In this document: positions 1 through 30,604 of the stretch, piece after piece
How the letters are laid out: each line of letters opens with the position of its first letter
How positions within the stretch are numbered: the first letter of the stretch is position 1
NCBI GenBank assembly: GCA_044450345.1
Contig: JBIOIY010000007.1
Coordinates: 1-64,000, forward strand
Direction of reading: 5' to 3'
DNA from: Thermodesulfovibrionales bacterium
GTDB taxonomy: Bacteria; Nitrospirota; Thermodesulfovibrionia; Thermodesulfovibrionales; UBA6898
Length of the DNA stretch: 64,000 nt
The notes under the pieces: generated by a model
Databases searched by the model: none
Seen by the model: the letters and a program-made list of their open reading frames with translations, nothing else
Told to the model about the DNA's origin: nothing
Program-made: the position numbers and the translations under genes

Positions 1-201
1 ATCGGAGTAGCCGCCGACAATATAGGTAGTAGCCGCCTGGAGCAGCACCATTATACTGAAGGCCAAACCGAGTTTTTCCACCCCGCCGCTGAGCTTCGCG
101 ACCTGAAGCACATAAAAAGGGCCGATGAATCCCATGACAACTGCCCAGATGGAGCTCACACTCGTGAATATGCGGAGATTCCTTTCATTCGTCGTGATCA
201 A
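1..201 (-). CDS. MFS transporter, N-terminal part (runs off window edge; not in ORF track)
   Basis: Manual translation from TTG at 201 (overlaps rSAM stop): MITTNERNLRIFTSVSSIWAVVMGFIGPFYVLQVAKLSGGVEKLGLAFSIMVLLQAATTYIVGGYSD; two TM helices ending at the start of MFS motif A (GxxSD). Confidence 0.75.
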   Translation of the reverse strand, partial: MITTNERNLRIFTSVSSIWAVVMGFIGPFYVLQVAKLSGGVEKLGLAFSIMVLLQAATTYIVGGYSD

Positions 202-1499
202 TCGCCGGTCTCCGGCATGTATTTTATGTCCTGTCCGACAAGGGTCTCAAGTGTTGCATCCAGATAAGGCTTTTTGCAATCGGTCTCGTGAATGTTTCCG
301 TCTCTCAGGACCTTCATAAACCTGCATCCCCCAAAACAGAGCGGCAGGTATTCGCAGTCAAGGCATTGCCCGTTCTTCCAGACATCAAGAGCATGAGACT
401 CATGAATTTCGAATAAACCTTCTCTGAGGTTTCCTGCAGCAAACCCCTCCCACCCGATAAACCCGGGGCATTTGTAGATCGTCCCGTCATAACTCACCAC
501 AACATCATTCGTCAGCCCTATCATACAAGGGGCGGGAAGGATTTTAGGGGTCTTGAACCCCCGCTTAAGGATCTCCTCCCTAAGAAAAAGGGTGGCCTTG
601 AATATCCAGGGTTCATTAATCGATTCGCTGCCGTCCCTGAATTCCGGAAGTGCAAACCTCCCGCCCGGCTTTACGACAGGATCAAATTTGACGATGAGAA
701 ACTTCTCCGGCGATAGACCCTCTGCGATGAGATAATCAAGGAGTTCGGGAAAACTCGTGTAGTTCTCCTCGGTATAGTTGCCGCCGATCTGGATGCTCAG
801 GATATCATATACCTCTTTAATGTTCTTTACGATCGTTTCGAAGGTCCCGCTCCCGGATTTGAAAGGTCGAAAGGAATTGTGGTTGTCCTTTGGACCATCG
901 AGCGTTATCTTTGCACTCTTCATCCCCAGGGCTGCAAGCTTCTTCGCTCTGGCCCGCGTCAATAGGGTTCCGTTCGTTACAAGATTGAAGGAGTATGTGA
1001 GCCCCCTGCCTTCAGACAATGATTTCAGTCTCTTAGAGACCCTCGTGATATCGTCAAAGCTTAAGAGGGGCTCACCCCCGTAGAAGTCGACATGCACGTC
1101 TTTGCCCTGAGAGAGGGCATGTTTTTCCAGAAAATCTGTCAGAAGCCCCAGGGTCTCCGTGGACATATAGTGCTTCCCCTTCATGTTTCCTTCATAGCAA
1201 TAGGTGCAGCGCAGGTTACAATCGAGGTTCATAACTACAATGGCATTGAATCTTCTCGCGCGTTTGTTGATGTCATCAATAAGACCTTGCATTTCCCTTA
1301 TTTCTTCATCCCTGTCAGAAACTAAAAAACCGAGTTCAGATAGAATCTTCCGATCCGAGGGCTCCAGCTCTCCCTTTTCTATTTGCTCAAGCGCGGTCTT
1401 AGGCAAGAGAATCGTTGATGCCCGCCTGGTGGAATAAAGGACCAGGTAGTCGGGATCATCTTCATAAGTATATGTCTTAATATATCTGGATAATTGCAT
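198..1499 (-). CDS. Radical SAM/SPASM peptide maturase (geopeptide-maturase-like)
   Basis: CNLRCTYC, FYGGEP, VTNGT; SPASM cysteines C-x...-YKC-...CLDCEYLPLCFGGC...C; N-terminal RRE-like region. Start taken at MQLSRY (1499) because the upstream ATG at 1535 lies within a terminator hairpin. Confidence 0.9.
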   Translation of the reverse strand: MQLSRYIKTYTYEDDPDYLVLYSTRRASTILLPKTALEQIEKGELEPSDRKILSELGFLVSDRDEEIREMQGLIDDINKRARRFNAIVVMNLDCNLRCTYCYEGNMKGKHYMSTETLGLLTDFLEKHALSQGKDVHVDFYGGEPLLSFDDITRVSKRLKSLSEGRGLTYSFNLVTNGTLLTRARAKKLAALGMKSAKITLDGPKDNHNSFRPFKSGSGTFETIVKNIKEVYDILSIQIGGNYTEENYTSFPELLDYLIAEGLSPEKFLIVKFDPVVKPGGRFALPEFRDGSESINEPWIFKATLFLREEILKRGFKTPKILPAPCMIGLTNDVVVSYDGTIYKCPGFIGWEGFAAGNLREGLFEIHESHALDVWKNGQCLDCEYLPLCFGGCRFMKVLRDGNIHETDCKKPYLDATLETLVGQDIKYMPETGD

Positions 1500-1507
1500 T
1501 GCCTTTG

Positions 1508-1533
1508 AAAAAAGAGGGGGAGTTATCTCCCCC
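1508..1533 (-). terminator. Intrinsic terminator/attenuator between precursor and maturase
   Basis: GGGGGAG-N4-CTCCCCC stem (1516-1533) followed by TCTTTTTT on the - strand. Confidence 0.7.
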
Positions 1534-1559
1534 ATCGAGTAAATCTTAAACTCAGCTCT

Positions 1560-1658
1560 CTACCATCTTAACGGCACGAAGGACCCGTAGCAGCAGACAC
1601 CTAATGGACCAGACGACTCCTTTACCCCTTTGCTGAGGACGACTATCGCCTTTTTCAT
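1560..1658 (-). CDS. Putative RiPP precursor peptide, 32 aa (not in ORF track)
   Basis: MKKAIVVLSKGVKESSGPLGVCCYGSFVPLRW*, strong SD GAGGAGG upstream, directly upstream of the rSAM/SPASM gene, Cys-Cys in the C-terminal core. Confidence 0.85.
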   Translation of the reverse strand: MKKAIVVLSKGVKESSGPLGVCCYGSFVPLRW

Positions 1659-1743
1659 CTTTTCCTCCTCTCATATGATCTCAGAATACCTCCGATGGAG
1701 GCCCTATCGTTTATTTTTTCCAAAATGGGACGATCTCCTATTT

Positions 1744-3654
1744 CTATATCTTAAGCCGCAGTCCTGCCTCGACCCATCTTCTGGGGTTCTTGAAGGCATC
1801 CACCAGATATTGAGAGCCGTTAAAGATATTGTGGGCTGTGAAGAAGAGCTCCGCGTTTCTTTTACCAAAAGAGAGGACCTTTTTAGTGAGGCTAAAGTCC
1901 CATATTATAGAGTTATACTGAGCATTGAGTGCCGAATCCGCGTTCCACCAGATATAATGGCCCTTAAGCAAAGCTCTGAGCGATTTGTTGTCGTTGTAAT
2001 GGATCCCCACATCATAGGTATAACGGGGGACGTCCAGCAGTTCTTCTCCGGTATCTCTATCGGTGGCATCGGTAAAGGCAACACCCGCAGAAATGGAGAC
2101 ATTATAGACCGGCACTGTTTTCAGCTCAAACTCGAAACCCTGTCTCCTCTGTTTTCCCTGGTTGACAGCCGTAAATGTCCCGTCACTCAAGGTCTCATTG
2201 AAAAGTGCATCAGTTATTTCATGCCTGAACGCTGTGCCCTTCAACCAGAGGTATTTTAGAACAGTTGATTCGATACCGGCCTGTACAGACCATACCTTCT
2301 CCATATGTAGGTCGGGATTCGGGACAGAGAAGGTACCAGTGCCGAAGGTCGCTGAAAGAGGAGGGGTACTGAACCCTCTTGCTCCAATGGCCCTCAGCAT
2401 CGTTTTTTCACCAAGATTATAGGTCACCCCCAGACTCGGGCTCACGAAGCTGCCGTTGGTACTCGTATGATCATACCTGATGCCTGGAGTGAAGGCGAAC
2501 TTGGCGGCTGTCATCGTGTCATTCACAAATACCGCCCACTTGCCAAGGCTCTGTTTTCCCCCGGTAATATTATTTGACTCAAGTTCCCCATAGTCATAGT
2601 CAAAACCAGAAACCACATCATGAATGCTGTTTTTCCATGTGAACTTGAGGCTCCCGCCGTTGTTCTTATCGTCATAATTGCTTGCCGATAGGATTTCCCC
2701 AGTACTGAGGCTGTTATTGATATGTTCTGCACGCTGACGCGAGGTCCTCAAAGATGCATTAAGGTCTGCGGTATCGGTCAGTGAATAATTAAACGAAAGC
2801 GTAGAAAAAAGATACTCGAAGGCGTTGCCGAAGGAGAGATCAACGGCTGGATACTGCCCCTCTCCCCTTGTCCCCTGGTTATAGCCAAAGGTGAAGGCGA
2901 CGTTGGCCTTTGACGAAACATCCCACTTTAATTTCGAATAAATATTGTTTGAGTAAAAAGAGGTGTTGGGTCTTAACCCGTTTGAAACAAGATTTCCGCC
3001 ATACAGGTAATAGGAAAGACTCTCCACCTTCCCCGAGACCTCAGCCCTGTAATCTCCCGTGTTCCTCTCTCCGTAAGACGCGGAGAGCATTCCTCCCGCC
3101 TTCCGTGATCCATCGCCACCCTTTGTTATGATGTGAATTATCCCGCCCAGTGACGAACCCCATGCAGAGGAGGCCGGCCCCTTGATTATCTCGATCCTAT
3201 CGATAATTTGGGCGGGGACAGCGGCAATGTCGGCGAAGCTGTCTGAGAGGTTATTGAGTGTTACATCATCGATTATCACAATTGCATGCCTGAATTCCGA
3301 GCCCTGTATCCGGGCGGTATCAGCGCTTCCGGGGCCGCCCCGCGAGTCTACCTGAACGCCGGTTATATTAAAGAGGACATCGGCCAGCGTATGTGCGTTC
3401 ATCTCCTCTATGTCTGCGGCTGTGATTACGGTCATGTTCTCGGCGACGTGGGAGATGAGTTTAGGATTCCTCGTGGGAGTCACTACGAGATCTTTCTCGC
3501 CGTAGAACATGTAAAGCGTATTGGTTTCATCTTCAGGCTGTGCCCAGGCATCAGAGATGAATGAAACAGAAAAGGCGAGAAGACAGAGGGCCATTATTTT
3601 TTTTATTAATTGGTCACCGTTCACAAAGTTTGATATAGTATGTGTAGTTGGCAT
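1744..3654 (-). CDS. TonB-dependent outer membrane receptor (BtuB-like plug + barrel)
   Basis: Signal peptide, VVTPTR, IDRIEIIKGPASSAWG..GGIIHIITK plug motif, C-terminal NIFN...PRRWVEAGLRLKI. True start may be downstream (e.g. 3594). Confidence 0.9.
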   Translation of the reverse strand: MPTTHTISNFVNGDQLIKKIMALCLLAFSVSFISDAWAQPEDETNTLYMFYGEKDLVVTPTRNPKLISHVAENMTVITAADIEEMNAHTLADVLFNITGVQVDSRGGPGSADTARIQGSEFRHAIVIIDDVTLNNLSDSFADIAAVPAQIIDRIEIIKGPASSAWGSSLGGIIHIITKGGDGSRKAGGMLSASYGERNTGDYRAEVSGKVESLSYYLYGGNLVSNGLRPNTSFYSNNIYSKLKWDVSSKANVAFTFGYNQGTRGEGQYPAVDLSFGNAFEYLFSTLSFNYSLTDTADLNASLRTSRQRAEHINNSLSTGEILSASNYDDKNNGGSLKFTWKNSIHDVVSGFDYDYGELESNNITGGKQSLGKWAVFVNDTMTAAKFAFTPGIRYDHTSTNGSFVSPSLGVTYNLGEKTMLRAIGARGFSTPPLSATFGTGTFSVPNPDLHMEKVWSVQAGIESTVLKYLWLKGTAFRHEITDALFNETLSDGTFTAVNQGKQRRQGFEFELKTVPVYNVSISAGVAFTDATDRDTGEELLDVPRYTYDVGIHYNDNKSLRALLKGHYIWWNADSALNAQYNSIIWDFSLTKKVLSFGKRNAELFFTAHNIFNGSQYLVDAFKNPRRWVEAGLRLKI

Positions 3655-3698
3655 ATAACTTATTGCGTTTAAGCTAACTATATAAGAAATATTGCCTC

Positions 3699-4619
3699 TT
3701 GTCTACTATGGGGAAATTTGATTTGCGAAAGTATTTCATACTAATATTTCTTTTTTTACTTACTTTCGAGCACGCCTATGCGGGCCAAAAGAGCGTACTC
3801 ATAGTCCAAAGCAGCAAGATAGGGCCTTACAACGAGGCGGTCGAAGGCTTCAAGAGCAGATGTCAGTGCACTGCAAAGGAGTTGGTCCTTTCAGATGCCG
3901 AAGGGCTAAACATATTCCGGGAAATCCGCTCATTCCAACCCGATGTCATTCTCGCCGTGGGGATCAACGCGCTTCTTAGGCTTAAAGCGATCAAAGATGT
4001 TCCCATCGTTTATGCTATGGTCTCCAACCCAGAGTCTATACATTTAGCGGGTGCCAACATTACGGGTGTCAGCATGAATATAGCGCCTGAAAAGCAGTTA
4101 TCCCTCCTTCAATTGGCCTTCCCCGGCCTCAAAAAGATTGGTCTTCTCTACAACCCTCTTAAATCCGGGGGGTTCGTCGAAAAAGCACTCGCATCATCGA
4201 GGGACATGTCGATAAAAATCATTGTAAAGGAAATCCATCATCCCATGGATGTTCCTCTGACAATTAACAGTCTCAAGGACAAAATAGACGCGTTCTGGAT
4301 GATACCCGACTCAACGGTTTTCTCACCAGAGACCGTAGAATATCTCTTCCTCTTTTCCTTTGAGAACAAGATACCTGTCTTGACCTTTTCGGAGAACTAC
4401 CTGTCAATGGGCGCGGTAATGTCCGCAAATATAGATGCAAGAGATATCGGGAAGCAGGCCGGAGAAATGGTAGCGAAGATCCTGTCGGGGGCCAATGTTG
4501 CGGATATCCCAAGTGTTGATGCCCGGAAAGCCAACGTCACGGTAAATCTGATAACGGCAAAAAAAATAGGGAGACCCCTCAGCAACGAGACCCTTTCCCG
4601 GTGGAAGGTAATCAACTGA
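3699..4619 (+). CDS. Orphan ABC transporter substrate-binding protein (ABC_sub_bind-like)
   Basis: Signal peptide; PIVYAMV, ITGV, KKIGLLYNP, DAFWMIPDSTV, IGKQAGEM..KIL, VNLITAKKIG motifs; no permease/ATPase adjacent. Confidence 0.8.
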   Translation: MSTMGKFDLRKYFILIFLFLLTFEHAYAGQKSVLIVQSSKIGPYNEAVEGFKSRCQCTAKELVLSDAEGLNIFREIRSFQPDVILAVGINALLRLKAIKDVPIVYAMVSNPESIHLAGANITGVSMNIAPEKQLSLLQLAFPGLKKIGLLYNPLKSGGFVEKALASSRDMSIKIIVKEIHHPMDVPLTINSLKDKIDAFWMIPDSTVFSPETVEYLFLFSFENKIPVLTFSENYLSMGAVMSANIDARDIGKQAGEMVAKILSGANVADIPSVDARKANVTVNLITAKKIGRPLSNETLSRWKVIN

Positions 4620-5174
4620 GATGAAAGCGAAATTAATCGGCGCTTTGAGAATAATCGGCCAGAGCTTCGGTACAAAGGTAGTTTCACTTTTGTAGTACGC
4701 TTTGATTTCAGGAAGGGCTTTCTTCTCCTGATGAAATCATAGTCTCAATTGACAGCCTTGCGTGTGCGCAGTATAGGAGGGAGTACACGACAAGGGTCTA
4801 AGCCCTCGTTGCTTTTTTTCGGGAAGTTATATTCTTGAGCTCTTCTTCAGATTGCTCTTGCAGCCACTACTCTTGTTTTGCCCACAGATCTTAGGCTCTG
4901 GATTCGGGAATGAAATACATTAAATGCTAATCACCGTATAGCAAAGAATGTGGAGTCTGACATTGCAGAAAACCCGACCCCTCACTGAAGGAGAATGGGT
5001 TGTTTCCCAATTTTCTATCCCAAAGCGCTCAAATAGCATAAGGACTTGAAAGGGGCGGGATTAACACCGGAACAGCAAAAATGTTGGGGAATCCGCTGGA
5101 ATCCGCTGGAGGAGTGGATAAACATTAATTAAATCGGTAAAATGTATTCCACAGTACGGAGAAAGGAGCTAAAC

Positions 5175-5522
5175 ATGAAACTGTTTACGTTGGAAGAGAG
5201 ACAGTACGAATTGGACAAAGAACTAAACCGTATTGTAGACATTACCATCAAAGAATATCAGCCTGAGAAAATAGTCTTATTCGGCTCAATCGCAGAAGGG
5301 ACAACTCACGAATGGAGCGACATCGACATGCTGATAATAAAGGATACCTCTCTGCGGCCTATTGATAGGTGTCTTGAACTGTTCCGGCTTATTCAGCCCA
5401 AAGTCGGGGTAGATCTCTTCATTTATACTCCTGATGAATTCAAAACCCTCTTGGATGAAAAATACTCATTTCTGCTCAATATTCTGAAAAGAGGCAAGGT
5501 GATGTATGAAAAAGGAGACTGA
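5175..5522 (+). CDS. Minimal nucleotidyltransferase (MNT) antitoxin
   Basis: LFGSIAEG...SDIDMLII motif; SD AAGGAG before ATG 5175. Confidence 0.85.
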   Translation: MKLFTLEERQYELDKELNRIVDITIKEYQPEKIVLFGSIAEGTTHEWSDIDMLIIKDTSLRPIDRCLELFRLIQPKVGVDLFIYTPDEFKTLLDEKYSFLLNILKRGKVMYEKGD

Positions 5523-5895
5523 AGAATGGATAAGAATTGCCATTGAGGACTTCCAGTCTGCCAAATACCTGTTAGAGAAATCCCTTTACAGGATGGTCTG
5601 CTATCATGCCCAGCAGACCGTTGAAAAACTGTCCAAAGCCATCCTCGTGCAGCACGATATAGATATTCCGCGCACACATAACCTTCTTGATCTGAATAAT
5701 GCAATAAAAAAACTTGGATATAATGTCCCTCTTTCTGATGAGGACACAGTCTTTTTGAACAGTATCTACCGATCGCGTTATCCATTTGATGCAGGGCTGC
5801 TCCCCCACGGGGAGCCGACAGAGAAAGATGCTGAAAAGGCATTAGACATCGCGAAACAAATGACAGCCTGGTCCAGGGAGATTTTACAATTTTAG
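5506..5895 (+). CDS. HEPN domain protein (toxin of MNT/HEPN pair)
   Basis: W..IA.ED, CYHAQQ.VEK..KA, THNL, SRYP motifs; overlaps the MNT gene. Confidence 0.85.
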   Translation: MKKETEEWIRIAIEDFQSAKYLLEKSLYRMVCYHAQQTVEKLSKAILVQHDIDIPRTHNLLDLNNAIKKLGYNVPLSDEDTVFLNSIYRSRYPFDAGLLPHGEPTEKDAEKALDIAKQMTAWSREILQF

Positions 5896-6365
5896 GAGCT
5901 TCACCAGTATTAATGATTATCTTCAAATAACGTGACCACGTTTGATCCTCCTTTCCAGCCTGAAGTGCATGGCAAGGTTATGTAGAGATCTTTCGTCTTT
6001 CAAAATGAAGTTTTGGCAACAGTACATCCAGAAATAAACGCCGGTCAGTCCGATTCAAAATATCACTTGCAGCCACCAAGTCGCGCCCTTGAGGGCAACC
6101 TGATATTAATGTTTCCGAGTTGAAAGGTTCATCCCCTATGTTCGTTCTCCTCGCTCCCCTATCTGCCATTTTTTCGGCATGGTACTGGGCGAAACTTATC
6201 GGGTAGCTCGGTTGAGCTGAATGACTCTCGGTCCTCGCGATGTCTTCCTGTACCCAACGCGAGTTTCATTTTTTGATATCTGAAGAATGCCGTTTCTACT
6301 AAGCACTTTTGGAAGATGAGACCGACGTTCATTTCTCCCCAAAGTCAACGCCGGAGCCCTCTTGC

Positions 6366-6520
6366 CAAAAAGCCTACAGGGAAGGCAAGTCAGGTCCTTG
6401 CCTCCCTAACATTGCCGTCTTATTTCCCCTTCAATTCTTCCGCGCGCATACTGTGCCATTTTGCAAAATCAAGATATTCAGCTTTCAATTTTTTGGCATC
6501 CTTGATGATTGCGTCGCAGT
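6366..6520 (-). repeat. Copy 1 of a ~155-bp inverted duplicate (3' end of 6420-6773 gene plus downstream sequence)
   Basis: Reverse complement aligns with 36039-36192 with scattered mismatches and one indel. Confidence 0.9.
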
Positions 6521-6773
6521 GGGCGTTCATTTTTTTGAGTCCGGCAACGGGCGTAACCTTTTCGTTTATGAAGAAATGGGTTTTGTAATCTCTCTTCATC
6601 TGTTCATGCTCTGTTATAACCGAATCCAGAGCAGCAGCCTTTTCTTCGTAGGATTTTGCCATCGCAAGATGGTCAGCAGCAACCTGTGATGGCTCCGCCG
6701 CGTATGCTGTATAGGTCACTGCAGAAGCCGCCATTATCGCCAAACATAGAACCAGAATTGTCAAAACTTTCAT
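6420..6773 (-). CDS. Exported helical hypothetical protein with spaced His/Met/Cys
   Basis: Signal peptide; DHLAMA, EHEQMK, MNAHC, WHSM; SD GGAGGAG. Confidence 0.75.
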   Translation of the reverse strand: MKVLTILVLCLAIMAASAVTYTAYAAEPSQVAADHLAMAKSYEEKAAALDSVITEHEQMKRDYKTHFFINEKVTPVAGLKKMNAHCDAIIKDAKKLKAEYLDFAKWHSMRAEELKGK

Positions 6774-6904
6774 CTTTCTTTTCTCCTCCGTTTATTTGTG
6801 TGTTTACAACTCGTACAACCCATGTGCTTTCCTCTTTATGAACGAACAAAATCTCACCTCCTTTACTCGCTAAAGTCAGCTACCTAAATTTTATCAGTAA
6901 TTTA

Positions 6905-6919
6905 TGAAAGTAAAATGAA
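6905..6919 (-). promoter_or_regulatory. TTCA-N7-TTCA direct-repeat box
   Basis: TGAA at 6905 and 6916 (11-bp period), upstream of the 6773 start. Confidence 0.55.
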
Positions 6920-7427
6920 GATTTTTATGGAAAATAGATGTATTTTGCAGGAAAGCTACAATAATGTAAGAACGACATAGGATATCTCACGTCGCAGTCT
7001 TGCCGCGTTATAGAAGACCATGACCTTGTTCGCTGTTTCAGGCAGCGCGATATTCGGGGTCGCTTGATGAAAGGGAAATTAAAGTACGCTAAGGAGATTT
7101 GTTTTAAATAGGGCTGCCATAGTTCAACCTGAAAGGAAATACCAGCCTTGAGAGCCTCGCGGAAGAAAATAAAGTGGGAGACCGGCTGGGGATCGGGGAT
7201 AACCGGTCTCCCTTGGGGAGAGACGACGATTTTTTGGGGATCTTGGAGGGATCGCCGTCCAGATTTATGTTAGCATTTCCTTCCTGCCAACTTGCAACTG
7301 CTTCGGGTATAAGGTGTAGTGGTTGCAGTTTGGTCTAATAGCTCGGTTTCGCTCAATGGAAAAATGGAAGGAGCCCTCTGCCTGGCCGCGTAACCAAAGG
7401 ACTCCGCTAAAAGACGGGAGGAAAAAC

Positions 7428-7461
7428 AAAGGGCGCGGAAAATGATTCTCCGTGCCCTTTT
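7428..7461 (-). terminator. Intrinsic terminator after 7484-8047
   Basis: AAAGGGCGCGGA...TCCGTGCCCTTT inverted repeat; homologous to the hairpin after the paralog at 11316-11345. Confidence 0.65.
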
Positions 7462-7483
7462 AGTCAGATTTGGTGATCTGAAT

Positions 7484-8047
7484 TTATTGAACTACAAAAT
7501 GTGTTGTCCAGAGATAGTAGGTTGACATATTCCCACCTGTCGGGGTTGCCATTAGACCAACTGTATAGGTTCCCTTTGGAAGCGATGAGGTAGGCATATT
7601 AGTAATGGGGGTTTGATCTATGGAAGTAACGCCAGCTATCCAGGGCTCAAAACCCATAGATACAGGCTTTAAAGTGCCGTCCGGATGCATCAGGTAGACA
7701 GTAAAGGGATCAACTGCCGGTGCATAGGCTGTGAGGTACATATCCATAGGACCTGAGAATTGACCGATCGCTGCATGGACGGTAATCATATTGCCACCCA
7801 TAGCAACAGATCCAACACCTATAGGCATTGAATTAGCAATGTCTGTCCCCATCACCGGTCCGGTTGTGGGACCATACTCGAACATCTGTTGGGCCATAGG
7901 CATCTGCATATAAGTTCCGGCTGTGCCGCCAGGCATCATCCCGGTGCCGCCAGATATTCCGGAACCGCCGCTGCCCATCATCGCCTGAGAGCTGCCTGCG
8001 AAGGCAAGCATACAGGTTAAAATTAATACTAAAGTAGTCCTTTTCAT
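7484..8047 (-). CDS. Exported Met/Gly-rich protein, paralog of 10690-11286
   Basis: Signal peptide, Met/Gly-rich linker, beta-rich domain nearly identical to 10690-11286 (MFEYGPT...TTHFVVQ). Confidence 0.8.
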   Translation of the reverse strand: MKRTTLVLILTCMLAFAGSSQAMMGSGGSGISGGTGMMPGGTAGTYMQMPMAQQMFEYGPTTGPVMGTDIANSMPIGVGSVAMGGNMITVHAAIGQFSGPMDMYLTAYAPAVDPFTVYLMHPDGTLKPVSMGFEPWIAGVTSIDQTPITNMPTSSLPKGTYTVGLMATPTGGNMSTYYLWTTHFVVQ

Positions 8048-8130
8048 AAGATTTATTTCTCCTTTTTCTTTTTGCTAATTTTCTTTCTGCTAGGATGCAG
8101 AAAGAACCTTCAAACGTTAGCTTACAGTTG

Positions 8131-8168
8131 CAAAATTAAGAAATTGTGAACTTCTCATTAAATCTTTT
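8131..8168 (-). promoter_or_regulatory. Conserved promoter block with TTCA-N7-TTAA box
   Basis: Reverse complement AGATTTAATGAGAAGTTCACAATTTCTTAATTT aligns with 9575-9607. Confidence 0.6.
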
Positions 8169-8185
8169 TAATCGATCCTTATATA

Positions 8186-8287
8186 TCAGAAGGGCTGAAT
8201 TCTATAAGCAAACGTAACTGCGGACGCCAATATCATGGCTGCCGCCAAAATAAACACTACTTTTTTCTTACTGATCATACCTTTCAT
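8186..8287 (-). pseudogene. Signal-peptide-only mini ORF (33 aa), probable truncated gene
   Basis: MKGMISKKKVVFILAAAMILASAVTFAYRIQPF*, SD GGGAGG, own TTCA-N7-TTCA box at 8442-8456. Confidence 0.5.
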
Positions 8288-8441
8288 TTTACCTCCCGAA
8301 AAAATTGCTTCTCTTTTTTTTAAAAACATCCACATTCAGAAATCATCTGAGTGGAGATACAAAGTAATACACACCACCTTTCCTGAATTGTTTGCTCCCT
8401 AAAAGAAGGGTACCTTTGTCGGGTAATCTATAGTTTCAATT

Positions 8442-8456
8442 TGAAGAAACTATGAA
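8442..8456 (-). promoter_or_regulatory. TTCA-N7-TTCA direct-repeat box
   Basis: TGAA at 8442 and 8453. Confidence 0.55.
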
Positions 8457-8592
8457 GAATAGGTTAAAGAATCTTAATGATCTCCATGCCGCCTCCATGC
8501 CAAGAATTCAATATACATGAAAACTGAAATATAATGGGTATCTAAGAGAAGTGCTAATCGGTAATGTATTTATTAAACGATTTAATGGATAC

Positions 8593-8607
8593 TTCATAAT
8601 ATCTTCA
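8593..8607 (+). promoter_or_regulatory. TTCA-N7-TTCA direct-repeat box
   Basis: TTCATAATATCTTCA preceded by GATTTAATG as in the 8131 and 9575 blocks. Confidence 0.6.
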
Positions 8608-8685
8608 CTTCGAGGCCGTATGGTACTTAACAAAAGGTAAGTACACTGCATTTTTGCAGAAAGAAAAAAAGGAGAGGTGAATCAA

Positions 8686-9387
8686 ATGAAAAAGACTATT
8701 TTAGTATTGATGTTAACCTGTTTGCTTGCTTTCGCAGGCAGTGCAGGAGCGGCTATGGGCGGAGGCATGATGGGAGGTATAACGACTACAGCGATGATGG
8801 GCGGAGGCATGAACATGACAAATACGGGTGGGTTCGGCATGATGAACGGTATGGCAGGATCGCCTGTCGTGGGCGATGATGGTACTGCATACCTTGTGTC
8901 GTACAATCCGACGGTTTCTCCAGGTTCCATTCCCACAAGCAATTCCTTCCAGTCAACTGTGTCAGCCATTACGCCATCGGGGCAGATAAATACAATAACC
9001 CTCAAAGGAATAGTCTCAAGACCGGTAGTCTCTGGTAATGTGCTTGTGGCAACAGCATCTTTACCCGATCCAAGCAACTATAACGTTGTAGGCTCTCTCG
9101 GAACAGGCTCGACGGGACAGTCTGTTCTTTATGCGATAACAGTGCCCATAACGCCTTCCACCGTGCCGATAGCTGTCACTATGGATGGTGAATTTGCATC
9201 GGTTCCAGTTATGACAACCGACAAGGTCTATGTAACCACTACGGACTTCGGCATTGCCATGATGCAGGGCAACACCACCTTCGGCGGCATGTATGGAAAC
9301 TTCAATTTCAACACAGGAACTGCCAAGTCGTATCTCTACATCGTAAACTTCGACGGAAGCCTTGCAGCAAAGATTCCGCTTCAGTAA
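8686..9387 (+). CDS. Exported Met/Gly-rich protein with PQQ-like beta repeats
   Basis: Signal peptide shared with 10690 and 7484 genes; MGGGMMGG runs; SPVVGDDGTAY, RPVVSGNVL, SVPVMTTDKVYV repeats. Confidence 0.75.
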   Translation: MKKTILVLMLTCLLAFAGSAGAAMGGGMMGGITTTAMMGGGMNMTNTGGFGMMNGMAGSPVVGDDGTAYLVSYNPTVSPGSIPTSNSFQSTVSAITPSGQINTITLKGIVSRPVVSGNVLVATASLPDPSNYNVVGSLGTGSTGQSVLYAITVPITPSTVPIAVTMDGEFASVPVMTTDKVYVTTTDFGIAMMQGNTTFGGMYGNFNFNTGTAKSYLYIVNFDGSLAAKIPLQ

Positions 9388-16380: not shown

Positions 16381-17916
16381 ATGAAATTTGGAATCCTTGC
16401 AATCCTTCCTTTATTTATTCCTTCCACTGCATGGGCTTTTGTGCCGCACTCCTACGCAGAGACCTACATCCATCAGATGGGGCATATATACTTCATCTTC
16501 TCATGCATATTCATTATATGGGTAATCAGGCATCATAATTTACAGGATAAAAGGGGCTGGCGATATATATTCCTCTCCGAAATATTTTTCATTCTTTGGA
16601 ATATGGACGCTTTTGTCGGCCATCTAACAGAATTCTGGATCAAGCCTTCACAGATAACCGGTGGGAGTGCGGGCTGGGATTACTTCTTCAGACATGTTTC
16701 ATTACAGGGCTGGGAATCCCTTTATTATGTGACGAGATACGATCATTTTTTGTGTATCCCCGCGATGTTCTTTTTTGTTCTGGGACTAAGAGAGCTTTTG
16801 GCGGAAGAGGAAAAAAGCCCGGTTGCCGCTGTCCTCTTGCCTTTGTTTCCCATCATGTTGGCCGACATGGCAGGCGGCCTTGTCATGATCGTTTTATCAC
16901 TGATGTGCCTTTATACCGCCGTAAAACTTTACAACACAAATAGAGAAAACACCCTCTGGAACTATCTGTTGTGGCTTTCGTTGGCACATTTTGTCTTTTC
17001 CTTTTCGCGGTCAGCTGGTCATATCCTCCAGCGTGTTCTCATACCAACCGGTTACGGACACATTTGGAGGTATCTGGAGCCATATAGTGGAAGTCTGAAT
17101 ACCTTCACCTTTATCGTGATAGGCTCTGTGAGCCTGTTTTTCTTCAGGACGTATGAGACCTATCTGAAGATATCGGATGACAACAGAAAAATAGAGGGCA
17201 TCAATGCGGATCTGACGGAACTTAACCAGGAGCTTGAGACGATGGTTGCAGAAAGGACGATGAGCCTCATGGCGTTGACTGTGGCCGACAGGGTAAGAAA
17301 CCCTGCCGCAGTGATTGGTTGGACGTGCAAAAAGATCCTTGAAAAGGAAGGGGACCCCGAGATAATTAAGGAAGGACTGAAAGATGTGCTCGATGAATCG
17401 AAAAAGCTGGAGTCCATAGTCAGAGACTTTGAGACGCTGTTGAAGAGCAAGCAGTCCATGTTCAGGTATGAGGATATAAATGAGATTGTAAGAGGGATTG
17501 TCCCTATTGTGGAAAAAGAGACCGAAGAGAGGGGCATAAGGTTCGATATTAATCTCTCTAACGATCCCCTGAAGATAAATACTCAAAAGAATTTGCTGAG
17601 GGCGGCAATTTTCCATCTTGTCAGAAATTCCATTGAGGCGACACCCCAGGGCGGCAGAGTAGCAGTTACAACCGCCGGAGACGGCGACAAGGTCATCCTG
17701 ACGGTTTCAGATACGGGTTCGGGCGTTCCAGAGGAGGACATCGATAAAATATTTGACCCATTTTACAGCACCAAGCGTCTCAGGTTCGGAATGGGGCTGC
17801 CATTGGTGAAACAGATAATATCGGAGCATCTTGGGGAGATAATAATTGAAACTGCCCCCGGAAAGGGCACGACGTTCAAGATACTGTTTCCGGTCAGATG
17901 GCTCGGGAAGAAGTGA
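16381..17916 (+). CDS. Multi-TM sensor histidine kinase-like protein lacking the phospho-acceptor His
   Basis: HATPase boxes (LVRNSIEA, DTGSG, IFDPFYSTK, GMGL, GKGTTF); H-box reads VADRVRNP. Confidence 0.8.
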   Translation: MKFGILAILPLFIPSTAWAFVPHSYAETYIHQMGHIYFIFSCIFIIWVIRHHNLQDKRGWRYIFLSEIFFILWNMDAFVGHLTEFWIKPSQITGGSAGWDYFFRHVSLQGWESLYYVTRYDHFLCIPAMFFFVLGLRELLAEEEKSPVAAVLLPLFPIMLADMAGGLVMIVLSLMCLYTAVKLYNTNRENTLWNYLLWLSLAHFVFSFSRSAGHILQRVLIPTGYGHIWRYLEPYSGSLNTFTFIVIGSVSLFFFRTYETYLKISDDNRKIEGINADLTELNQELETMVAERTMSLMALTVADRVRNPAAVIGWTCKKILEKEGDPEIIKEGLKDVLDESKKLESIVRDFETLLKSKQSMFRYEDINEIVRGIVPIVEKETEERGIRFDINLSNDPLKINTQKNLLRAAIFHLVRNSIEATPQGGRVAVTTAGDGDKVILTVSDTGSGVPEEDIDKIFDPFYSTKRLRFGMGLPLVKQIISEHLGEIIIETAPGKGTTFKILFPVRWLGKK

Positions 17917-17928
17917 CATCCATTTACT

Positions 17929-18975
17929 TCAGAGGTCGATTTCATCAGGATCACATACGGCCCATACAAAAAAATGAGGTCCCCTCTTATGTCCAACGCC
18001 TATGGCGCCTTTGGTGAGATACAAGGCCCATGCCCAGTCTGGCTCGAACATGCTGGTTGTAGATGACCAGTAGGATTCCTGTATGCACTCGAAGGGATGT
18101 CCGGATGGCAATGCAGGACTGTGCATTCCGCAATCCACGAGCGATTCGAGTTCATTGATATTGGGTAGTCGCCATCCGACCTTCCCTGTCGCCCTTTGAT
18201 TAAGCTGGGCCACCTCCTTGAGCGCATCAAGCCAGGTAACGGGGCCACCGGCAAGGTCTGCGCGCTTTGCCCAGCAGAGTGCCGTCAGACGGTCAATAAC
18301 GACATCGTCTATGACTTCAAAGCGGGGTTCAGGCCAGGGACGTCCGAAACGGAATTCGCCGTCCTGTCCCGAACCTTCACAGTGAATACATCGTCCGTTA
18401 GAATCATAACATTGCGTCTGTCCTGTGGCAGGCAGGATAGAGTGCCCTCCGGCTCTGACCGGCCAAAGCAGAGAGAACTGCTCCTTGTTTCCGTAAAACA
18501 TGCGGGCGCCTTCCATATGGACATACCAGGCGTACGCAGGATTGATCACCGAAGTTGTGGATGTCCAGTACCACCCGATAAAGATATTGGTAAAAGGGTG
18601 GCCTTTGGGCAGTGCCGGTTTATTCGTCTGATGACTCACGAGACTTCGCAGTTCGCGACGGTTGGGGAGACGCCAGTCCGAATAGCCGAATGCCTTTTCT
18701 TGATTCATGCCTGAAATGTAATCCAAAGCCTCCTGCCAGGTCAAAGGGAATTCAGCAGGGTTTGCGTTTCGCGTCCATATCAGTCCCGTGAGGCGATCCA
18801 GAACGACTCCTTCAAGTTGCTTAAAGCGCGGCGCAGGCCATGCGATGCCCCTTTTAAATTCCGCATCCTGCCCGCTGCCCCGGCAGGGAATCTCGTCGCC
18901 TTCCGTGTCGTGACAAGTTATCTGACCCGTCTGGAGATAACAACTTGCTCTAATTTCCTGATTATGACTTTCCAT
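17929..18975 (-). CDS. DUF1566 (Lcl-type) tandem-domain protein
   Basis: Two repeats of TGQ..C.D..G..I.C.GSGQD.E, DRLTGL.W, WRLPN..EL.SLV, YW[TS]STT. Confidence 0.85.
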   Translation of the reverse strand: MESHNQEIRASCYLQTGQITCHDTEGDEIPCRGSGQDAEFKRGIAWPAPRFKQLEGVVLDRLTGLIWTRNANPAEFPLTWQEALDYISGMNQEKAFGYSDWRLPNRRELRSLVSHQTNKPALPKGHPFTNIFIGWYWTSTTSVINPAYAWYVHMEGARMFYGNKEQFSLLWPVRAGGHSILPATGQTQCYDSNGRCIHCEGSGQDGEFRFGRPWPEPRFEVIDDVVIDRLTALCWAKRADLAGGPVTWLDALKEVAQLNQRATGKVGWRLPNINELESLVDCGMHSPALPSGHPFECIQESYWSSTTSMFEPDWAWALYLTKGAIGVGHKRGPHFFVWAVCDPDEIDL

Positions 18976-19321
18976 ATTCAAGAAAACCGCGACTTTACGG
19001 TTACACTTTCCCTTCCCGTTAAAATAATTTATTTTATCACCAACAGATGACTGGAAGAACCAGCCAGCGAGACTTTGGGGATCTCGATGGTGCCGAGCGG
19101 ATTGACACTCCTGAAAAAAGAGGGATGATTAAGATAGCAACAAAAGTCCTCCCTATTGGGAAAGAGAAGAACTTGAGGCAGAGGAGGTGACAACAATTGC
19201 ATTGTGACCTTGGACGGGCTGGGTTGTTGGCAGCCGTCCCGAATCCAGGGAAAAATTGGTGAGATTTTCTAAAGTAAAATCATGCTTTAGTAGAGAATGT
19301 CACCCGCAAAGAGGAGGTTCA

Positions 19322-19726: not shown

Positions 19727-20020
19727 GAGTAGACGACGCGTGAATGATGAACGAACTATTCATTAAGCGTTGTCCACTGCCGTCTTCAAAAAGAAAAACC
19801 TTGAAAGCAAAGCACCGGACGAGCGAATGCGCGCCCGCAATATTTCTTTATTTGAGAAAGCGCTTGCAGTTGCACTCTGCTGTGATAGACTGATAGCAAT
19901 AGCAGAACTTGCTTAATCCTTTCGGAATTCTTGCTGCGGGGCTCCGCAACACCTTTTCTTGCACTTTCTGCGAATACGCTGAAACTGTCCGCGATAATTG
20001 AAGTGATGCTTATGAGAACG

Positions 20021-21502
20021 ATGCTCAATAGATATCGCAGCGCGGCAGCGTTCATTTTTCTGTTTGTAGGCGCCTCTACCCTTTGTTCGAAAGCTGAAGC
20101 TTTCGGGGATGGTTATATTGGAGCTGAAAAATGTGCCGTTTGCCACAGGGGAGAATATGATGGCTGGCAGAAATCCGGCCATGCCCTCATCCTTCGCAAG
20201 CCGATAGATTCAACAGCCAGTGGAATTCCCCTTCCTTCAGGTTTCGGGCGGAATGATATTTCATATGTAATCGGCGGACACAGATGGAAGGCGCTTTTCG
20301 TTGATAAAAACGGATATCTGATAACCTCCAACATCTCCGGCAAAGGAAAAAATCAATATAACCTAAAAAGTAGGAAGTGGGCAGATTATCTTCCTGGTCA
20401 AAAGACTCCGTATGACTGCGGCGGCTGTCACACGACAGGCTATTCGCCTGATGGTCATCAGAATGGGCTCGAAGGCATTGTAGGCACGTGGCAGCTTGAG
20501 GGAGTTCAGTGCGAGGGATGTCATGGGCCGGGCTCCGCCCACGCGGAATCGACGAAAAAATCGGACATTAAGATCATCAAAGCTGTTTGTGCCGGGTGTC
20601 ATGGGATAAAACCATTCGATTCAATCCGACTGAAGGGTGTCTTCATCGAACCATACACGGAAGCAAATCAGCTTTCGAAGAGCGGGATGAAAAATCTTTC
20701 GTGCACCGATTGCCACAATCCTCATCTCGATGCTGGAAAGTCCATAAAGCAAAGCTGCGAATCATGCCACCGGAAAGCCTCTGAGAGATATCGGGGAAGC
20801 TATATGTTTCAAAAGGGTGTTGTTTGCACGGATTGTCACATGCCTCCCGCTGGCATAGTCGCCACAGGGGATCCAAAGCTATTTCGCGGAGATCTGAAAA
20901 GCCATATCTTCGTGATCGACCATCGCAAGGACTTTCCGTCCATGACCGTAAACGGGGAGACTGTGAATCCAGGGTACTTGAGTGTCGATTACGCCTGCAC
21001 GCCCTGTCACAACATTTTCGAAAACAGACAGTGGGCTGTCAGTTTCGGGGCTGTATCGCACAGGATAAAGATAACTACAAACATCAAAATTATGCGTCTT
21101 CAGTTGTCACTGGCCCTGCTCGGCTTTCTTTCTTCCCTTGTGGCCCTCGGTTCCGCCCTCTCCCTCAAGCAATGGATTCTTCCTTCTCTCAACAAAAAAA
21201 GAATGCTTAGCATCCATAAGCATGCGGCCTGGATCACTTTTGCGCTCTACGTCTTCATTTCCATTATGTGCATCTACTTCCATTTCCCGCTTAACGCTCC
21301 CCAAAAGGCCCTCGCGATGGGCTGGTTTTTGATTCATCCGATAAACGGAGCGCTCGGGGTCATAATCTATAGTGGAAAGATCGTAGCAGTCAGAAAATTC
21401 AAAAAGGGTTGGGCTACGCCGGGTCTCACTTGGGGGATAGGACTTTCGGTGTTCTGGCTTTTACAGTACGCTACAGCCGTATTTTCCTATTTTGGGAGGT
21501 GA
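20021..21502 (+). CDS. Octaheme c-type cytochrome with C-terminal ~4-TM domain
   Basis: Eight CxxCH: CAVCH, CGGCH, CEGCH, CAGCH, CTDCH, CESCH, CTDCH, CTPCH; hydrophobic C-terminus with His residues. Start uncertain (20012/20021). Confidence 0.85.
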   Translation: MLNRYRSAAAFIFLFVGASTLCSKAEAFGDGYIGAEKCAVCHRGEYDGWQKSGHALILRKPIDSTASGIPLPSGFGRNDISYVIGGHRWKALFVDKNGYLITSNISGKGKNQYNLKSRKWADYLPGQKTPYDCGGCHTTGYSPDGHQNGLEGIVGTWQLEGVQCEGCHGPGSAHAESTKKSDIKIIKAVCAGCHGIKPFDSIRLKGVFIEPYTEANQLSKSGMKNLSCTDCHNPHLDAGKSIKQSCESCHRKASERYRGSYMFQKGVVCTDCHMPPAGIVATGDPKLFRGDLKSHIFVIDHRKDFPSMTVNGETVNPGYLSVDYACTPCHNIFENRQWAVSFGAVSHRIKITTNIKIMRLQLSLALLGFLSSLVALGSALSLKQWILPSLNKKRMLSIHKHAAWITFALYVFISIMCIYFHFPLNAPQKALAMGWFLIHPINGALGVIIYSGKIVAVRKFKKGWATPGLTWGIGLSVFWLLQYATAVFSYFGR

Positions 21503-23454: not shown

Positions 23455-25695
23455 TTGAAAGAAAAAGAAGTCACCTACACCTGCCCGATGCATCCTGAGA
23501 TAAGGCAGCCGGGGCCTGGCACCTGTCCAAAATGCGGCATGGCACTGGAGCCGGTGCAACCGTCAATTCCGGCCGTCAAGACAGAATGGACCTGTCCGAT
23601 GCATCCTGAAATTGTCCGCGACGCTCCGGGCAGTTGTCCTATCTGCGGCATGGCGCTGGAACCTAAAATGATCACTGCCGGAGAAGAGGAAAACCCCGAA
23701 CTGCTCGATATGACGCGGCGGTTCAAGGTAAGCGTCATACTAACGATCCCCTTGGTCTTAATTGCCATGCGCCACTATATTCCGGGTCTCTCAATAATCG
23801 ACCGCGTTATTCCCACCGGCGTCATGAAATGGATGGAATTGGTTCTTGCCACACCTGTGGTACTTTGGGGGGCATGGCCGTTCTTTGTCAGGGGTTGGCG
23901 GTCGGTCGTCACCTGGAATCCGAACATGTTTACCCTCATCGGGCTGGGCGTCGGCGTCGCATACGTTTACAGTCTTGTCGCGGCGCTTTTCCCCGGGCTC
24001 TTCCCGGCGTCGTTTCGTGGTGAAAGCGGTGAAGTGGGCATGTATTTCGAGGCTGCTGCTGTTATCGTTACGCTTGTGCTGGTCGGCCAAGTGATGGAAT
24101 TGAGGGCGAGGACACGGACCGGCGCAGCGATTAAGGCCCTTCTCGGCCTTGCGCCAAAAACAGCCCGCCGCATACGGAACGGAAATGAAGAGGATGTTCC
24201 CCTTGAGCAGATCCAGGCGGGTGATCTTCTCCGTGTAAGACCGGGCGAAAAGATCCCGGTTGACGGCGCGGTCACTGAAGGATCAAGCAGCGTAGATGAA
24301 TCAATGATTTCCGGTGAGTCGATCCCGGTGATGAAGCAGTCGGGGGACAGTGTCATCGGCGCAACAGTGAATGGTACCGGTACAATGATAATGAAGGCAG
24401 AAAAGGTCGGGGCCGAAACACTTCTGGCGCAGATAGTAAATATGGTGGCTGAAGCCCAGCGTAGCCGTGCGCCGATCCAGAAGCTTGCCGACACCGTGGC
24501 GGGATATTTTGTCCAGATCGTCGTCAGTATCGCTGTTATTACATTTGTCGCATGGGCCTGGCTGGGGCCTGAGCCCCGTATGGCCTATGCCCTTGTCAAC
24601 GCAGTTGCAGTGCTGATCATCGCCTGCCCATGTGCGCTTGGTCTGGCAACTCCTATGTCGATCATGGTTGCGATGGGCAAGGGGGCAACAGGCGGCGTGC
24701 TTTTTAAGAACGCAGAGGCTATCGAGGTGATGAAGACCGTCGATACCCTTGTTACGGATAAAACCGGCACGCTCACCGAAGGAAAGCCGAAACTGGTGAG
24801 CGTGGTCCCCGCAGCCGGAGTCGATGAGAAGACGCTTCTTCATTTTGCCGCGAGCATCGAGATGGGAAGCGAGCACCCCCTTGCAGCAGCGATCGTCGCC
24901 GGAGCAAAAGAAAAGGATATCTCACCTTCAAAGGTTGATTCCTTTGAATCGCTCACCGGACGCGGGGTAACGGGTCTGATTGACGGAAGAAAGGTCGCCC
25001 TTGGAAACCGGAAGCTTATTGAAGAGCTCGGCATAGCGCCGGGAGAACTTCCGGACAAGGCAGAGTCCATGCGCACGGAGGGACAGACAGTCATGTTTGT
25101 TGCCTTAGACGGAAAGGCTGCGGGGCTCCTTGGTGTGGCAGACCCGATCAAGGCGACGACAGCCGAGGCGATAGAGAAACTTCATCAGGAAGGGATAAGA
25201 GTCGTTATGCTCACGGGAGACAACAAGACCACTGCCGAGGCTGTCGGAAAGAAACTCGGCATCGATGAGGTGATCGCCGAGGTCCTGCCGGACCAGAAAG
25301 CAGAGATGGTCAAACGATTGCAGGGGGAGGGAAAAATTGTGGCAATGGCAGGAGATGGCATCAATGACGCGCCGGCCCTAGCACAGGCACACGTCGGTGT
25401 AGCAATGGGGACCGGGACGGACGTGGCGATGCAGAGCGCTGGGGTGACCCTGGTGAAAGGCGATCTTCGCGGGATCGTACGGGCGAGAAGGTTAAGCAGA
25501 GCTACGATGCGCAATATTAAACAAAACCTCTTCTGGGCCTTTGCTTACAACGCTCTTGGTGTTCCTATCGCGGCAGGCGTACTTTATCCCTTTGTGGGCA
25601 TCCTCCTCAGCCCCATATTTGCAGCTGCGGCAATGAGCTTCAGTTCGGTTTCCGTGGTGGGAAACGCGTTGAGGCTGAGAAGGGTTAAGCTGTAA
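23455..25695 (+). CDS. copA: Copper-translocating P1B-type ATPase
   Basis: Two [YW]TCPMHP metal-binding domains, [22 protein letters not shown] and MSFSS Cu(I) signatures. Confidence 0.95.
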
Positions 25696-29204: not shown

Positions 29205-29253
29205 AAATAAGAATGAGGGCTTTTAAAATTTGGACAAGGCAAGACGGCTTGAG

Positions 29254-30525: not shown

Positions 30526-30604
30526 CGCTATAAACAGGAGGAAAGCCGAGATCCATTTATGAAAGAAAAGAAATTGTCCGAAAAACCGAAAAGTTATACC
30601 TTAA

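Follow-up and report, generated by a model that had tools for sequence, protein, structure and literature searches.

Why would a bacterium keep, side by side, a small cysteine-containing peptide, an enzyme that could modify it, a receptor through which it could return to the cell and a periplasmic protein that could bind it? This question is raised by positions 1–4619 of the DNA that we studied, a stretch of 64,000 nucleotides (hereafter, the window) on contig JBIOIY010000007.1 of a Thermodesulfovibrionales bacterium (assembly GCA_044450345.1). A reading made from the sequence alone (the sequence-only reading) had proposed that the modified peptide is secreted and recaptured, either as a signal or as a metallophore. 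Based on the results of our comparative analysis, we favour the signal and give an even chance to an autoinducer loop, in which the secreted, modified peptide would be re-imported and sensed. The evidence for this includes the conservation of the locus and its pairing with a sensor kinase, the gene for which is cut short in the window.

The locus and its conservation

Gene identities were assigned from the open reading frame (ORF) listing and from Pfam and NCBIfam profile scans. The minus strand carries the gene for a TonB-dependent receptor (3654–1744; 636 aa; Pfam Plug 69 bits, barrel 126 bits), that for a 32-aa precursor with a Cys-Cys pair (1658–1560), recognised as an ORF with a Shine-Dalgarno sequence, that for a radical S-adenosylmethionine (SAM)/SPASM maturase (1499 or 1535 to 198; TIGR04280 613 bits, Pfam Radical_SAM 56 bits) and the start of a gene for a protein resembling the major facilitator superfamily (MFS; 201–1), of which 67 N-terminal aa lie within the window edge and which, as a fragment alone, matched no family. 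Some 44 bp separate the receptor gene from the divergent plus-strand gene for a PF04392 (ABC_sub_bind) binding protein with a signal peptide (3699–4619; Pfam 128 bits). This is followed, on the same strand, by the remnant of a hybrid histidine kinase gene (4621–4695), with its first 20 codons conserved and a TAG stop at 4693–4695. All five genes named in the sequence-only reading, four co-oriented on the minus strand and the binding protein divergent, were confirmed in place, as was the overlap of the maturase stop and the MFS start at 198–201 (TTGA, with TTG at 201–199 and TGA at 200–198).

At E ≤ 1e-20, a protein search with the maturase returned over 2,600 relatives, the sources of which, where named, were Thermodesulfovibrionales, Nitrospirota, Nitrospirae, Geobacteraceae or an unclassified “bacterium.” For a census of neighbourhoods, a one-genome-per-species collection was scanned with an alignment of 15 maturase sequences; 463 stretches were confirmed by tblastn, and the best 80 of them, with flanks of up to 10 kb, were retained and their 4,715 ORFs clustered. 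By record title, the 80 loci comprise 41 of Nitrospirota type, 13 from Geobacteraceae, 16 from Desulfobacterota or “delta” and 10 others. Upstream DNA of 300 bp or more was available in 76 loci, and in 74 of them the receptor adjoins the maturase. Flanking DNA was regarded as sufficient when at least 5 kb upstream and at least 2.5 kb downstream were available (43/80 loci); among these 43, the receptor was present in 41, the binding protein likewise in 41 and a same-strand kinase beside the binding protein in 39. The receptor and the binding protein, which the sequence-only reading had expected to travel with the maturase, do co-occur with it, and the five-gene arrangement is far beyond chance. 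The conserved core consists of the receptor, the precursor, the maturase, the binding protein and a Cache kinase, often with a response regulator.

The same parts appear in three recurrent layouts. In 39 loci, the binding protein and the kinase run divergently from the receptor, the precursor and the maturase; in 22, the receptor, precursor, maturase, binding protein, kinase and response regulator form a single co-oriented string in this order; and in 3, the receptor joins the binding protein and the kinase, divergently from the precursor and the maturase. The parts have therefore been reshuffled and yet kept together. Across the 80 loci, regulators of LuxR type or sigma-54 type are frequent beside the kinase, no ATP-binding cassette (ABC) permease or ATPase family is conserved, and no other real gene family occurs in at least 30 loci, the remaining frequent “families” being antisense shadow ORFs. 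The geopeptide locus, so called after the name of its maturase family (see below), recurs as a conserved unit among anaerobes of the Nitrospirota, Geobacteraceae and Desulfobacterota.

The binding protein had been described as an orphan, and this is only half of the picture. No permease or ATPase gene follows it in the window, in agreement with that description, but its true partner is the kinase, the gene for which is cut at 4621–4683; the binding protein looks orphaned because this partner gene is truncated. Of the 64 census loci that have a binding protein, 57 encode the kinase as its immediate same-strand neighbour, and the stop and start codons of the two genes often overlap. Five of the seven remaining loci end with the contig; the other two are L028, with a kinase-like ORF 2.5 kb from the binding protein, and L045, which is fragmented. 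Since the kinase adjoins in 57 of 64 loci and a permease is conserved in none of the 80, the binding protein is likely a kinase partner, probably a co-sensor, and not a stranded part of an ABC importer. A kinase just outside the window had also been anticipated: in the relatives it does exist, on the binding-protein side, but here it is cut after about 21 codons.

Several loci depart from the common plan. In L009, from a Geobacter metagenome-assembled genome (MAG), the precursor and maturase stand alone, none of the receptor, binding protein and kinase being found within 10 kb to either side, and in L040 the receptor is present and the binding protein absent. In 8 of the 80 loci (L017, L019, L026, L029, L033, L039, L066, and L072), chemotaxis genes (MCP, CheW) occur no more than 10 kb from the maturase, which may be due to chance in che-rich genomes. 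In the intergenic regions between binding protein and receptor of 38 loci, no conserved operator or promoter was seen by eye, no motif finder having been run.

The peptide, its maturase and its receptor

The precursor of the window, MKKAIVVLSKGVKESSGPLGVCCYGSFVPLRW, is preceded by GAGGAGG 6 nt ahead of its ATG and consists of a leader (MKKAIVVLSKG), an invariant Cys-Cys and a variable tail (YGSFVPLRW). It is co-oriented with the maturase and stops 61 nt before the ATG at 1499. Small ORFs of the same build were found upstream of the maturase in 71 of the 80 loci by pattern and in five more by eye (L005, L034, L041, L065, and L078), giving 76 of 80; three of the four other loci have no upstream DNA, and none was found in L055. 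Within this family the leader follows the consensus M-x-[K/E]-x-[I/V][I/V][I/V]L-[D/K/S]-x-G and the Cys-Cys is essentially invariant, with a variable tail of 7–12 residues that often reads x-G-A-[F/Y]-x-P-x-R. The NCBIfam precursor model TIGR04229 (22 positions, cut-off 30 bits) is narrow: the precursor of the window matched neither this nor any other NCBIfam model at E ≤ 10, and of 12 related precursors tested only two matched it, both under 30 bits (L072, 20.9; L042, 11.3). A search of the ESM Atlas with the precursor gave uninformative matches only, all at or below 0.84.

Some precursor loci are built differently. Long Lys/Ala-rich repeats (AKKKATKKK...), an unusual insertion, stand between the leader and the Cys-Cys core in L016 (9773–9934), L038 (1848–2021), L061 (1350–1505), and L078 (9788–9985), and at L008 (9615–9945) two precursor genes lie in tandem, with tails that differ slightly. 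Different core peptides are encoded at L015 and L044, two loci of one MAG; therefore, a single genome can carry two geopeptide systems.

The maturase scored 612.9 bits as the 445-aa ORF and 613.1 bits in a 433-aa form against TIGR04280, the “geopeptide radical SAM maturase” (cut-off 400). It is a full member of this family, and the locus belongs to a named but uncharacterised group, the model of which is typed “hypoth_equivalog” in NCBIfam. The longest ORF starts at 1535; the 433-aa form, from ATG 1499, aligns to positions 1–427 of the 428 in the model, and 1499 is therefore more likely to be the true start. With the start taken as 1499, a terminator-like hairpin on the minus strand (1533–1516; GGGGGAG-ATAA-CTCCCCC followed by a T-run) falls between the precursor and the maturase, a place in which peptide operons are expected to have an attenuator. 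In 40 of 71 loci, a hairpin with a T-run follows the precursor stop within 110 nt; of 71 control segments taken from within the maturase gene, 5 have one. The hairpin at 1516–1533 is probably an attenuator that gives a surplus of precursor transcript.

Across 15 homologues of the maturase, the CxxxCxxC motif (C106/C110/C113) and seven C-terminal cysteines (C337, C356, C391, C394, C400, C404, and C420) are invariant, and Fer4_12 is among the Pfam matches. The closest solved structure is CteB (5wgg, 82 bits), and the next-best NCBIfam models are TIGR04463 (164 bits), CefB (142), PapB (130) and SCIFF (106), all below cut-off; these, with CteB, we take to be SPASM maturases that consume cysteines and form thioethers. 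Because the nearest characterised relatives of the maturase form thioethers, thioether rings from the two cysteines of the precursor are the most likely modification. A leader-binding domain of the PqqD type, or RiPP (ribosomally synthesised and post-translationally modified peptide) recognition element, was not shown: the N-terminus of the maturase (window 1214–1499) gave only a 14-bit YcxB match in Pfam at E ≤ 10. The CteB (SCIFF), PapB and CefB systems, of ranthipeptide type, thus offer the nearest structure and models and share a Cys-containing substrate, whereas the maturase of the window lies under all their cut-offs and so represents a separate family. Those systems occur mostly in Gram-positive bacteria and are not known to be accompanied by a receptor, binding protein and kinase.

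With its 636 aa, the receptor has the size of BtuB; a signal peptide and a TonB-box-like DLVVTPT can be made out by eye. Could it be a cobalamin importer of BtuB type that merely neighbours, by chance, a cofactor-hungry radical SAM gene? Besides the fitting size, TonB-B12 and BtuB are its best matches in NCBIfam and BtuB its best match in the PDB, yet the scores are low: 133.4 bits against TonB-B12 (TIGR01779; cut-off 599.7), 113.9 against BtuB (NF007926; cut-off 836) and 70 bits against the BtuB structure, with every NCBIfam equivalog model scoring it far under cut-off. A cobalamin riboswitch in the leader is common, though not universal, for B12 receptors; here, the leader measures only about 44 bp, no Rfam family, and hence no such riboswitch, matched window 1–9000 at E ≤ 1, and a scan of seven related loci (149 kb) at the gathering score gave tRNA matches only. 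Nor did the maturase match a B12-binding domain in the Pfam and NCBIfam scans, and the receptor co-varies with the core peptide (see below). On these scores, the case that the sequence-only reading had named against itself, a receptor that groups with verified cobalamin transporters, is not borne out, and we regard a B12 importer as barely credible.

The gene that overlaps the maturase stop had been called an MFS exporter, a designation that did not hold in this form, as its homologues are half-size (about 190 aa, with six transmembrane segments, TM) and the gene is confined to 17 of the 80 loci. The full-length homologue of the fragment, in the closely related locus L001 (11332–11916), has 194 aa, is 90% identical and matches positions 11–177 of 347 in Pfam MFS_1 (76 bits). 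Homologues of 185–200 aa are encoded in 14 of the 17 loci; of the other three, two run off the end of the locus and one is an over-extended ORF. A conserved ORF for a C-terminal half does not follow. A 12-TM, two-repeat MFS exporter of about 400 aa was considered and rejected, as the homologues cover only the first half of MFS_1 (positions 11–178 of 347). The 4-nt overlap of the maturase stop and the MFS start is kept in 14 of the 17 loci (13 TTGA, 1 ATGA). The ESM Atlas holds many clusters of MFS proteins of 181–230 aa; such half-size proteins are therefore not rare. Export of the peptide by the half-size MFS protein, where it is present, is plausible.

Co-variation and the proposed signalling loop

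In the related loci, the kinase has about 650 aa with HAMP, HisKA, HATPase_c and usually REC domains. Its periplasmic segment (residues 43–196 in L001) matches Pfam sCache_4 with 22–33 bits, and the AlphaFold model of this domain from L001 has a single PDC/Cache-like fold (predicted local distance difference test, pLDDT, 85.5). Among solved structures, those closest in fold come from the periplasmic portions of CdgS9 (a LapD orthologue), CitA and WalK, at TM-scores of about 0.5–0.6. A co-fold of the L001 binding protein (21–298) with the kinase domain (43–196) scored 0.71, compared with 0.63 for one unrelated control, and was not used as evidence. The binding protein itself scored 88 bits against the TrpX model (cut-off 390), and its relatives in the PDB are 6hni, 3lkv, and 3lft. 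According to the introduction of PMC10443332, loaded binding proteins can stimulate sensor kinases.

Partial Mantel tests were restricted to the 35 loci with a complete set of parts; each of the 45 others lacked a full-length receptor, the binding protein, a neighbouring kinase whose sensor segment is complete or a precursor recognised by pattern. With the maturase controlled, the kinase sensor domain was correlated with the binding protein (r = 0.76, p = 0.0003), as was the cytoplasmic part of the kinase (r = 0.36, p = 0.0007), and the sensor domain showed no significant correlation with the receptor (r = -0.12). The distances of the core peptide followed those of the receptor both without control (r = 0.42, p = 0.0005) and with the maturase controlled (r = 0.21, p = 0.007), and they had no significant relation to the maturase once the receptor was controlled (r = 0.006). 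This pattern suggests two co-diversifying units, one formed by the peptide and the receptor and the other by the binding protein and the kinase sensor, and the partial correlation of 0.76 supports a putative contact between the binding protein and the sensor domain.

Ribosomal peptide signals are textbook knowledge in Gram-positive bacteria and rare in double-membraned ones; one reason for this rarity is that peptides of such size are not expected to pass through porins. The geopeptide locus may solve this problem. In the loop that we propose as the most economical mechanism, the maturase would cross-link the two cysteines of the precursor to residues of its tail, likely by thioether bridges; the leader would be removed, and the small cyclic peptide would leave the cell, in some lineages via the half-size MFS protein that is translationally coupled to the maturase. 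As its size probably bars it from porins, the peptide would return to the periplasm through its dedicated TonB-dependent receptor. There, it would be captured by the binding protein, which would activate the Cache kinase and thereby change transcription, so that the peptide would act as a quorum or kin signal of a double-membraned cell. A fuller version, which we advance tentatively and with less than even confidence, describes a radical-SAM-cyclised autoinducer with a co-diversifying TonB receptor and a PF04392-Cache kinase readout, in which the various tails and receptors would serve as private “channels” of strains and the window strain would be a signal-blind producer.

Several results weigh against this loop. 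No exporter or leader protease is conserved among the 80 loci, and the half-size MFS gene, found in 17 of 80 loci and, among the 72 that have 700 bp or more of downstream DNA, in 15, belongs to a minority and is therefore not a general export route. The PF04392 ligands known from table 1 of PMC10443332 are free aromatic amino acids, not peptides. With the maturase controlled, the core peptide co-varied neither with the binding protein nor with the kinase sensor (r about 0, not significant), so that a specific pairing of peptide and binding protein is unsupported by the Mantel test. Furthermore, the leader also correlated with the receptor under the same control (r = 0.14, p = 0.012); the tests therefore leak some phylogenetic or linkage signal and are suggestive only, and linkage within operons could also yield the two co-varying units.

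Some of these results would fit a scenario in which the receptor, the binding protein and the kinase sense another external cue and the peptide is merely regulated by them, as an antimicrobial or an intracellular product. The solved PF04392 proteins, which in table 1 of PMC10443332 bind L-Trp, L-Tyr or L-Phe, would suit such a cue, as would the lack of co-variation at both the binding protein and the sensor, the 63 of 80 loci without the half-size MFS gene and the lack of an exporter or leader protease in most loci. Against it stand the position of the receptor gene, which in 71 loci immediately precedes the precursor in the same orientation, and the 22 single-string loci, in which the precursor and maturase sit between the receptor and the binding protein with its kinase. 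The divergence of the core peptide also follows that of the receptor beyond that of the maturase, and the immunity and ABC-peptidase genes typical of bacteriocin clusters are not conserved in the 80 loci. We therefore consider this scenario unlikely.

The other branch of the sequence-only reading, the metallophore, supposes that the Cys-Cys peptide binds copper or another metal outside the cell and returns via the receptor, with the binding protein and the kinase reporting its arrival. Methanobactin operons likewise combine the gene for a ribosomal Cys-containing peptide with genes for a TonB-dependent transporter, for a periplasmic binding protein and for an exporter, and in the window a block of copper and iron genes lies 2–37 kb off (Met-rich proteins, YtkA, CopA, CusCBA, Fur, FeoAB, and a cation diffusion facilitator, CDF). 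However, the genes of this block are scarce in the census (CopA and CusA in 2 of the 80 loci each, CusB and CDF in 1 each, and Fur, FeoB, CusC and YtkA in none), they are absent from L001, in which homology to the window at 87% DNA identity ends at 4683, and the block in which they sit also carries genes for a toxin-antitoxin pair, a primase, TnpB and E2/ThiF/JAB proteins. Because the block is absent from L001 and its genes occur in at most two of the 80 loci, the adjacency of copper and iron genes, which had itself been flagged as a possible coincidence, is just that, and a tempting but false copper link can be set aside. The maturase is nearest to CteB/SCIFF, PapB and CefB, enzymes that consume cysteines in forming thioethers, and no DUF692/MbnB-type gene, inner-membrane importer, or Fur or ECF regulator is among the conserved families. 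The metallophore retains some probability because of the invariant Cys-Cys motif, but apart from the chance neighbours in the window nothing else speaks for it, and we consider it decidedly unlikely. Of the two branches, the pairing of the binding protein with the kinase favours the signal, while the metallophore finds weak support in our data.

Membership in the methanobactin group was rejected: neither MbnB (DUF692) nor MbnC, which define that group, was found in the window region or among the conserved neighbours of the 80 loci. The analogy drawn in the sequence-only reading stands for the architecture, which is alike, but does not extend to the enzymes or to the binding-protein family. Here, the modification enzyme is a radical SAM protein, and a PF04392 binding protein, a half-size MFS protein and a two-component kinase are found, with metal genes that are not conserved; the MbnE and MbnM families differ from PF04392 and from the half-size MFS. 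A parallel for the sensory part is provided by LuxP-LuxQ and TorT-TorS, in which a periplasmic binding protein is encoded beside a hybrid kinase, and the kinase core of L001 weakly resembles the LuxQ and TorS models. In the geopeptide loci the pair also co-varies; it consists, in contrast, of PF04392 and sCache_4 proteins, and its ligand would need a dedicated TonB-dependent receptor to pass the outer membrane before it could be bound.

The nearest known system remains the geopeptide system of NCBIfam (TIGR04280/TIGR04229), with which the window shares the maturase family and, as a comparison with the Geobacter precursors (e.g., L072) shows, the precursor plan of leader, Cys-Cys and short tail, although the precursor of the window and 10 of the 12 related ones do not match TIGR04229. 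No papers on this family were found in the literature searched. A precedent for a TonB-dependent transporter in a radical SAM peptide cluster is the Itf RiPP cluster of Bacteroides thetaiotaomicron, which includes the transporter ItfF; as described in section III.b of PMC11002830, this cluster differs in its YcaO protein, its ABC/C39 exporter and its Trp-Ile C-C link, and that section mentions no binding protein or kinase. The family itself has thus already been named, and signalling of the kind suggested here, with receptor, binding protein and kinase, may possibly be previously undescribed, a claim that we make with some reserve. If the loop exists, it would explain coordination among environmentally important metal- and sulfur-cycling anaerobes and would give TonB-dependent receptors a new job. 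The five-gene set is clear and testable, and its interest lies in the hypothesis at the level of the system rather than in the copy found in the window.

The kinase break and the genes beyond it

The copy in the window is degenerate in that it lacks its kinase. The break was defined against a single relative, L001, from a Nitrospiraceae MAG, with which the window shares DNA homology over positions 1–4683 (86.7% identity over 4,703 columns); the homology then ends, 20–21 codons into the kinase gene. In this region, the two loci are 89% identical in the maturase and the receptor and 82% in the binding protein at the protein level. By tblastn, window 4621–4680 corresponds to residues 1–20 of the L001 kinase (85% identity), after which the sequences diverge and the TAG at 4693 closes the frame. 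In L001, the kinase is intact (667 aa), and a tRNA-Ser(GGA) gene lies at 4721–4811, about 100 bp past it; tRNA genes are classic integration sites of genomic islands. The window has no tRNA at all, no match to the L001 tRNA-Ser or to the L001 genes beyond it and no recognised integrase, and the only match to the kinase body elsewhere in the window was a generic one (35%; 17536–17895) in the ATPase domain of an unrelated kinase.

This pattern reads as a foreign or mobile block beyond 4683 that replaced or split the kinase gene; alternatively, the break could be an assembly join, which would count against the loss of the kinase from this strain. With the gene truncated, the window strain has probably kept the ability to produce and import the peptide but not to sense it via this kinase.

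The rest of the window (4684–64000) has no counterpart in L001 and contains toxin-antitoxin genes, genes for copper and iron homeostasis and then replication, defence and mobile genes. The first recognisable genes past the break (ORFs of at least 100 aa) are an overlapping plus-strand pair of the typical MNT-HEPN toxin-antitoxin kind (nucleotidyltransferase, Polbeta/NTP_transf_2, 5142–5522; HEPN, 5506–5895). They are followed by the genes of two secreted Met/Gly-rich proteins of MMGGGM type (7484–8047 on the minus and 8677–9387 on the plus strand), which have no match in Pfam or NCBIfam. Met-rich runs are Cu(I)-binding motifs and would fit the adjacent copper genes.

The metal block proper (11955–41732) encodes two YtkA-like proteins, a 678-aa NapH-like Fer4_5 membrane protein (ferredoxin) and a P-II protein. 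Within it also lie the unrelated sensor kinase (16381–17916), a minus-strand gene for a 350-aa protein with two Lcl C-terminal domains (17929–18981; 219 bits), a multihaem cytochrome (19931–21502), CopA with HMBD domains (23455–25695) and CusCBA (29230–35892), together with a YHS-domain pyridine-nucleotide oxidoreductase, Fur, FeoA/FeoB and the CDF transporter. Past about 43.6 kb come genes for ERCC4, primase and PLD proteins, followed by a prokaryotic ubiquitin-like conjugation set on the minus strand (52078–56274; ThiF E1, DUF2016-JAB, Prok-E2_D, and Prok_Ub), a TnpB/IS605 OrfB gene (56598–57791) and a gene for a second DnaN-like sliding clamp (58226–59335).

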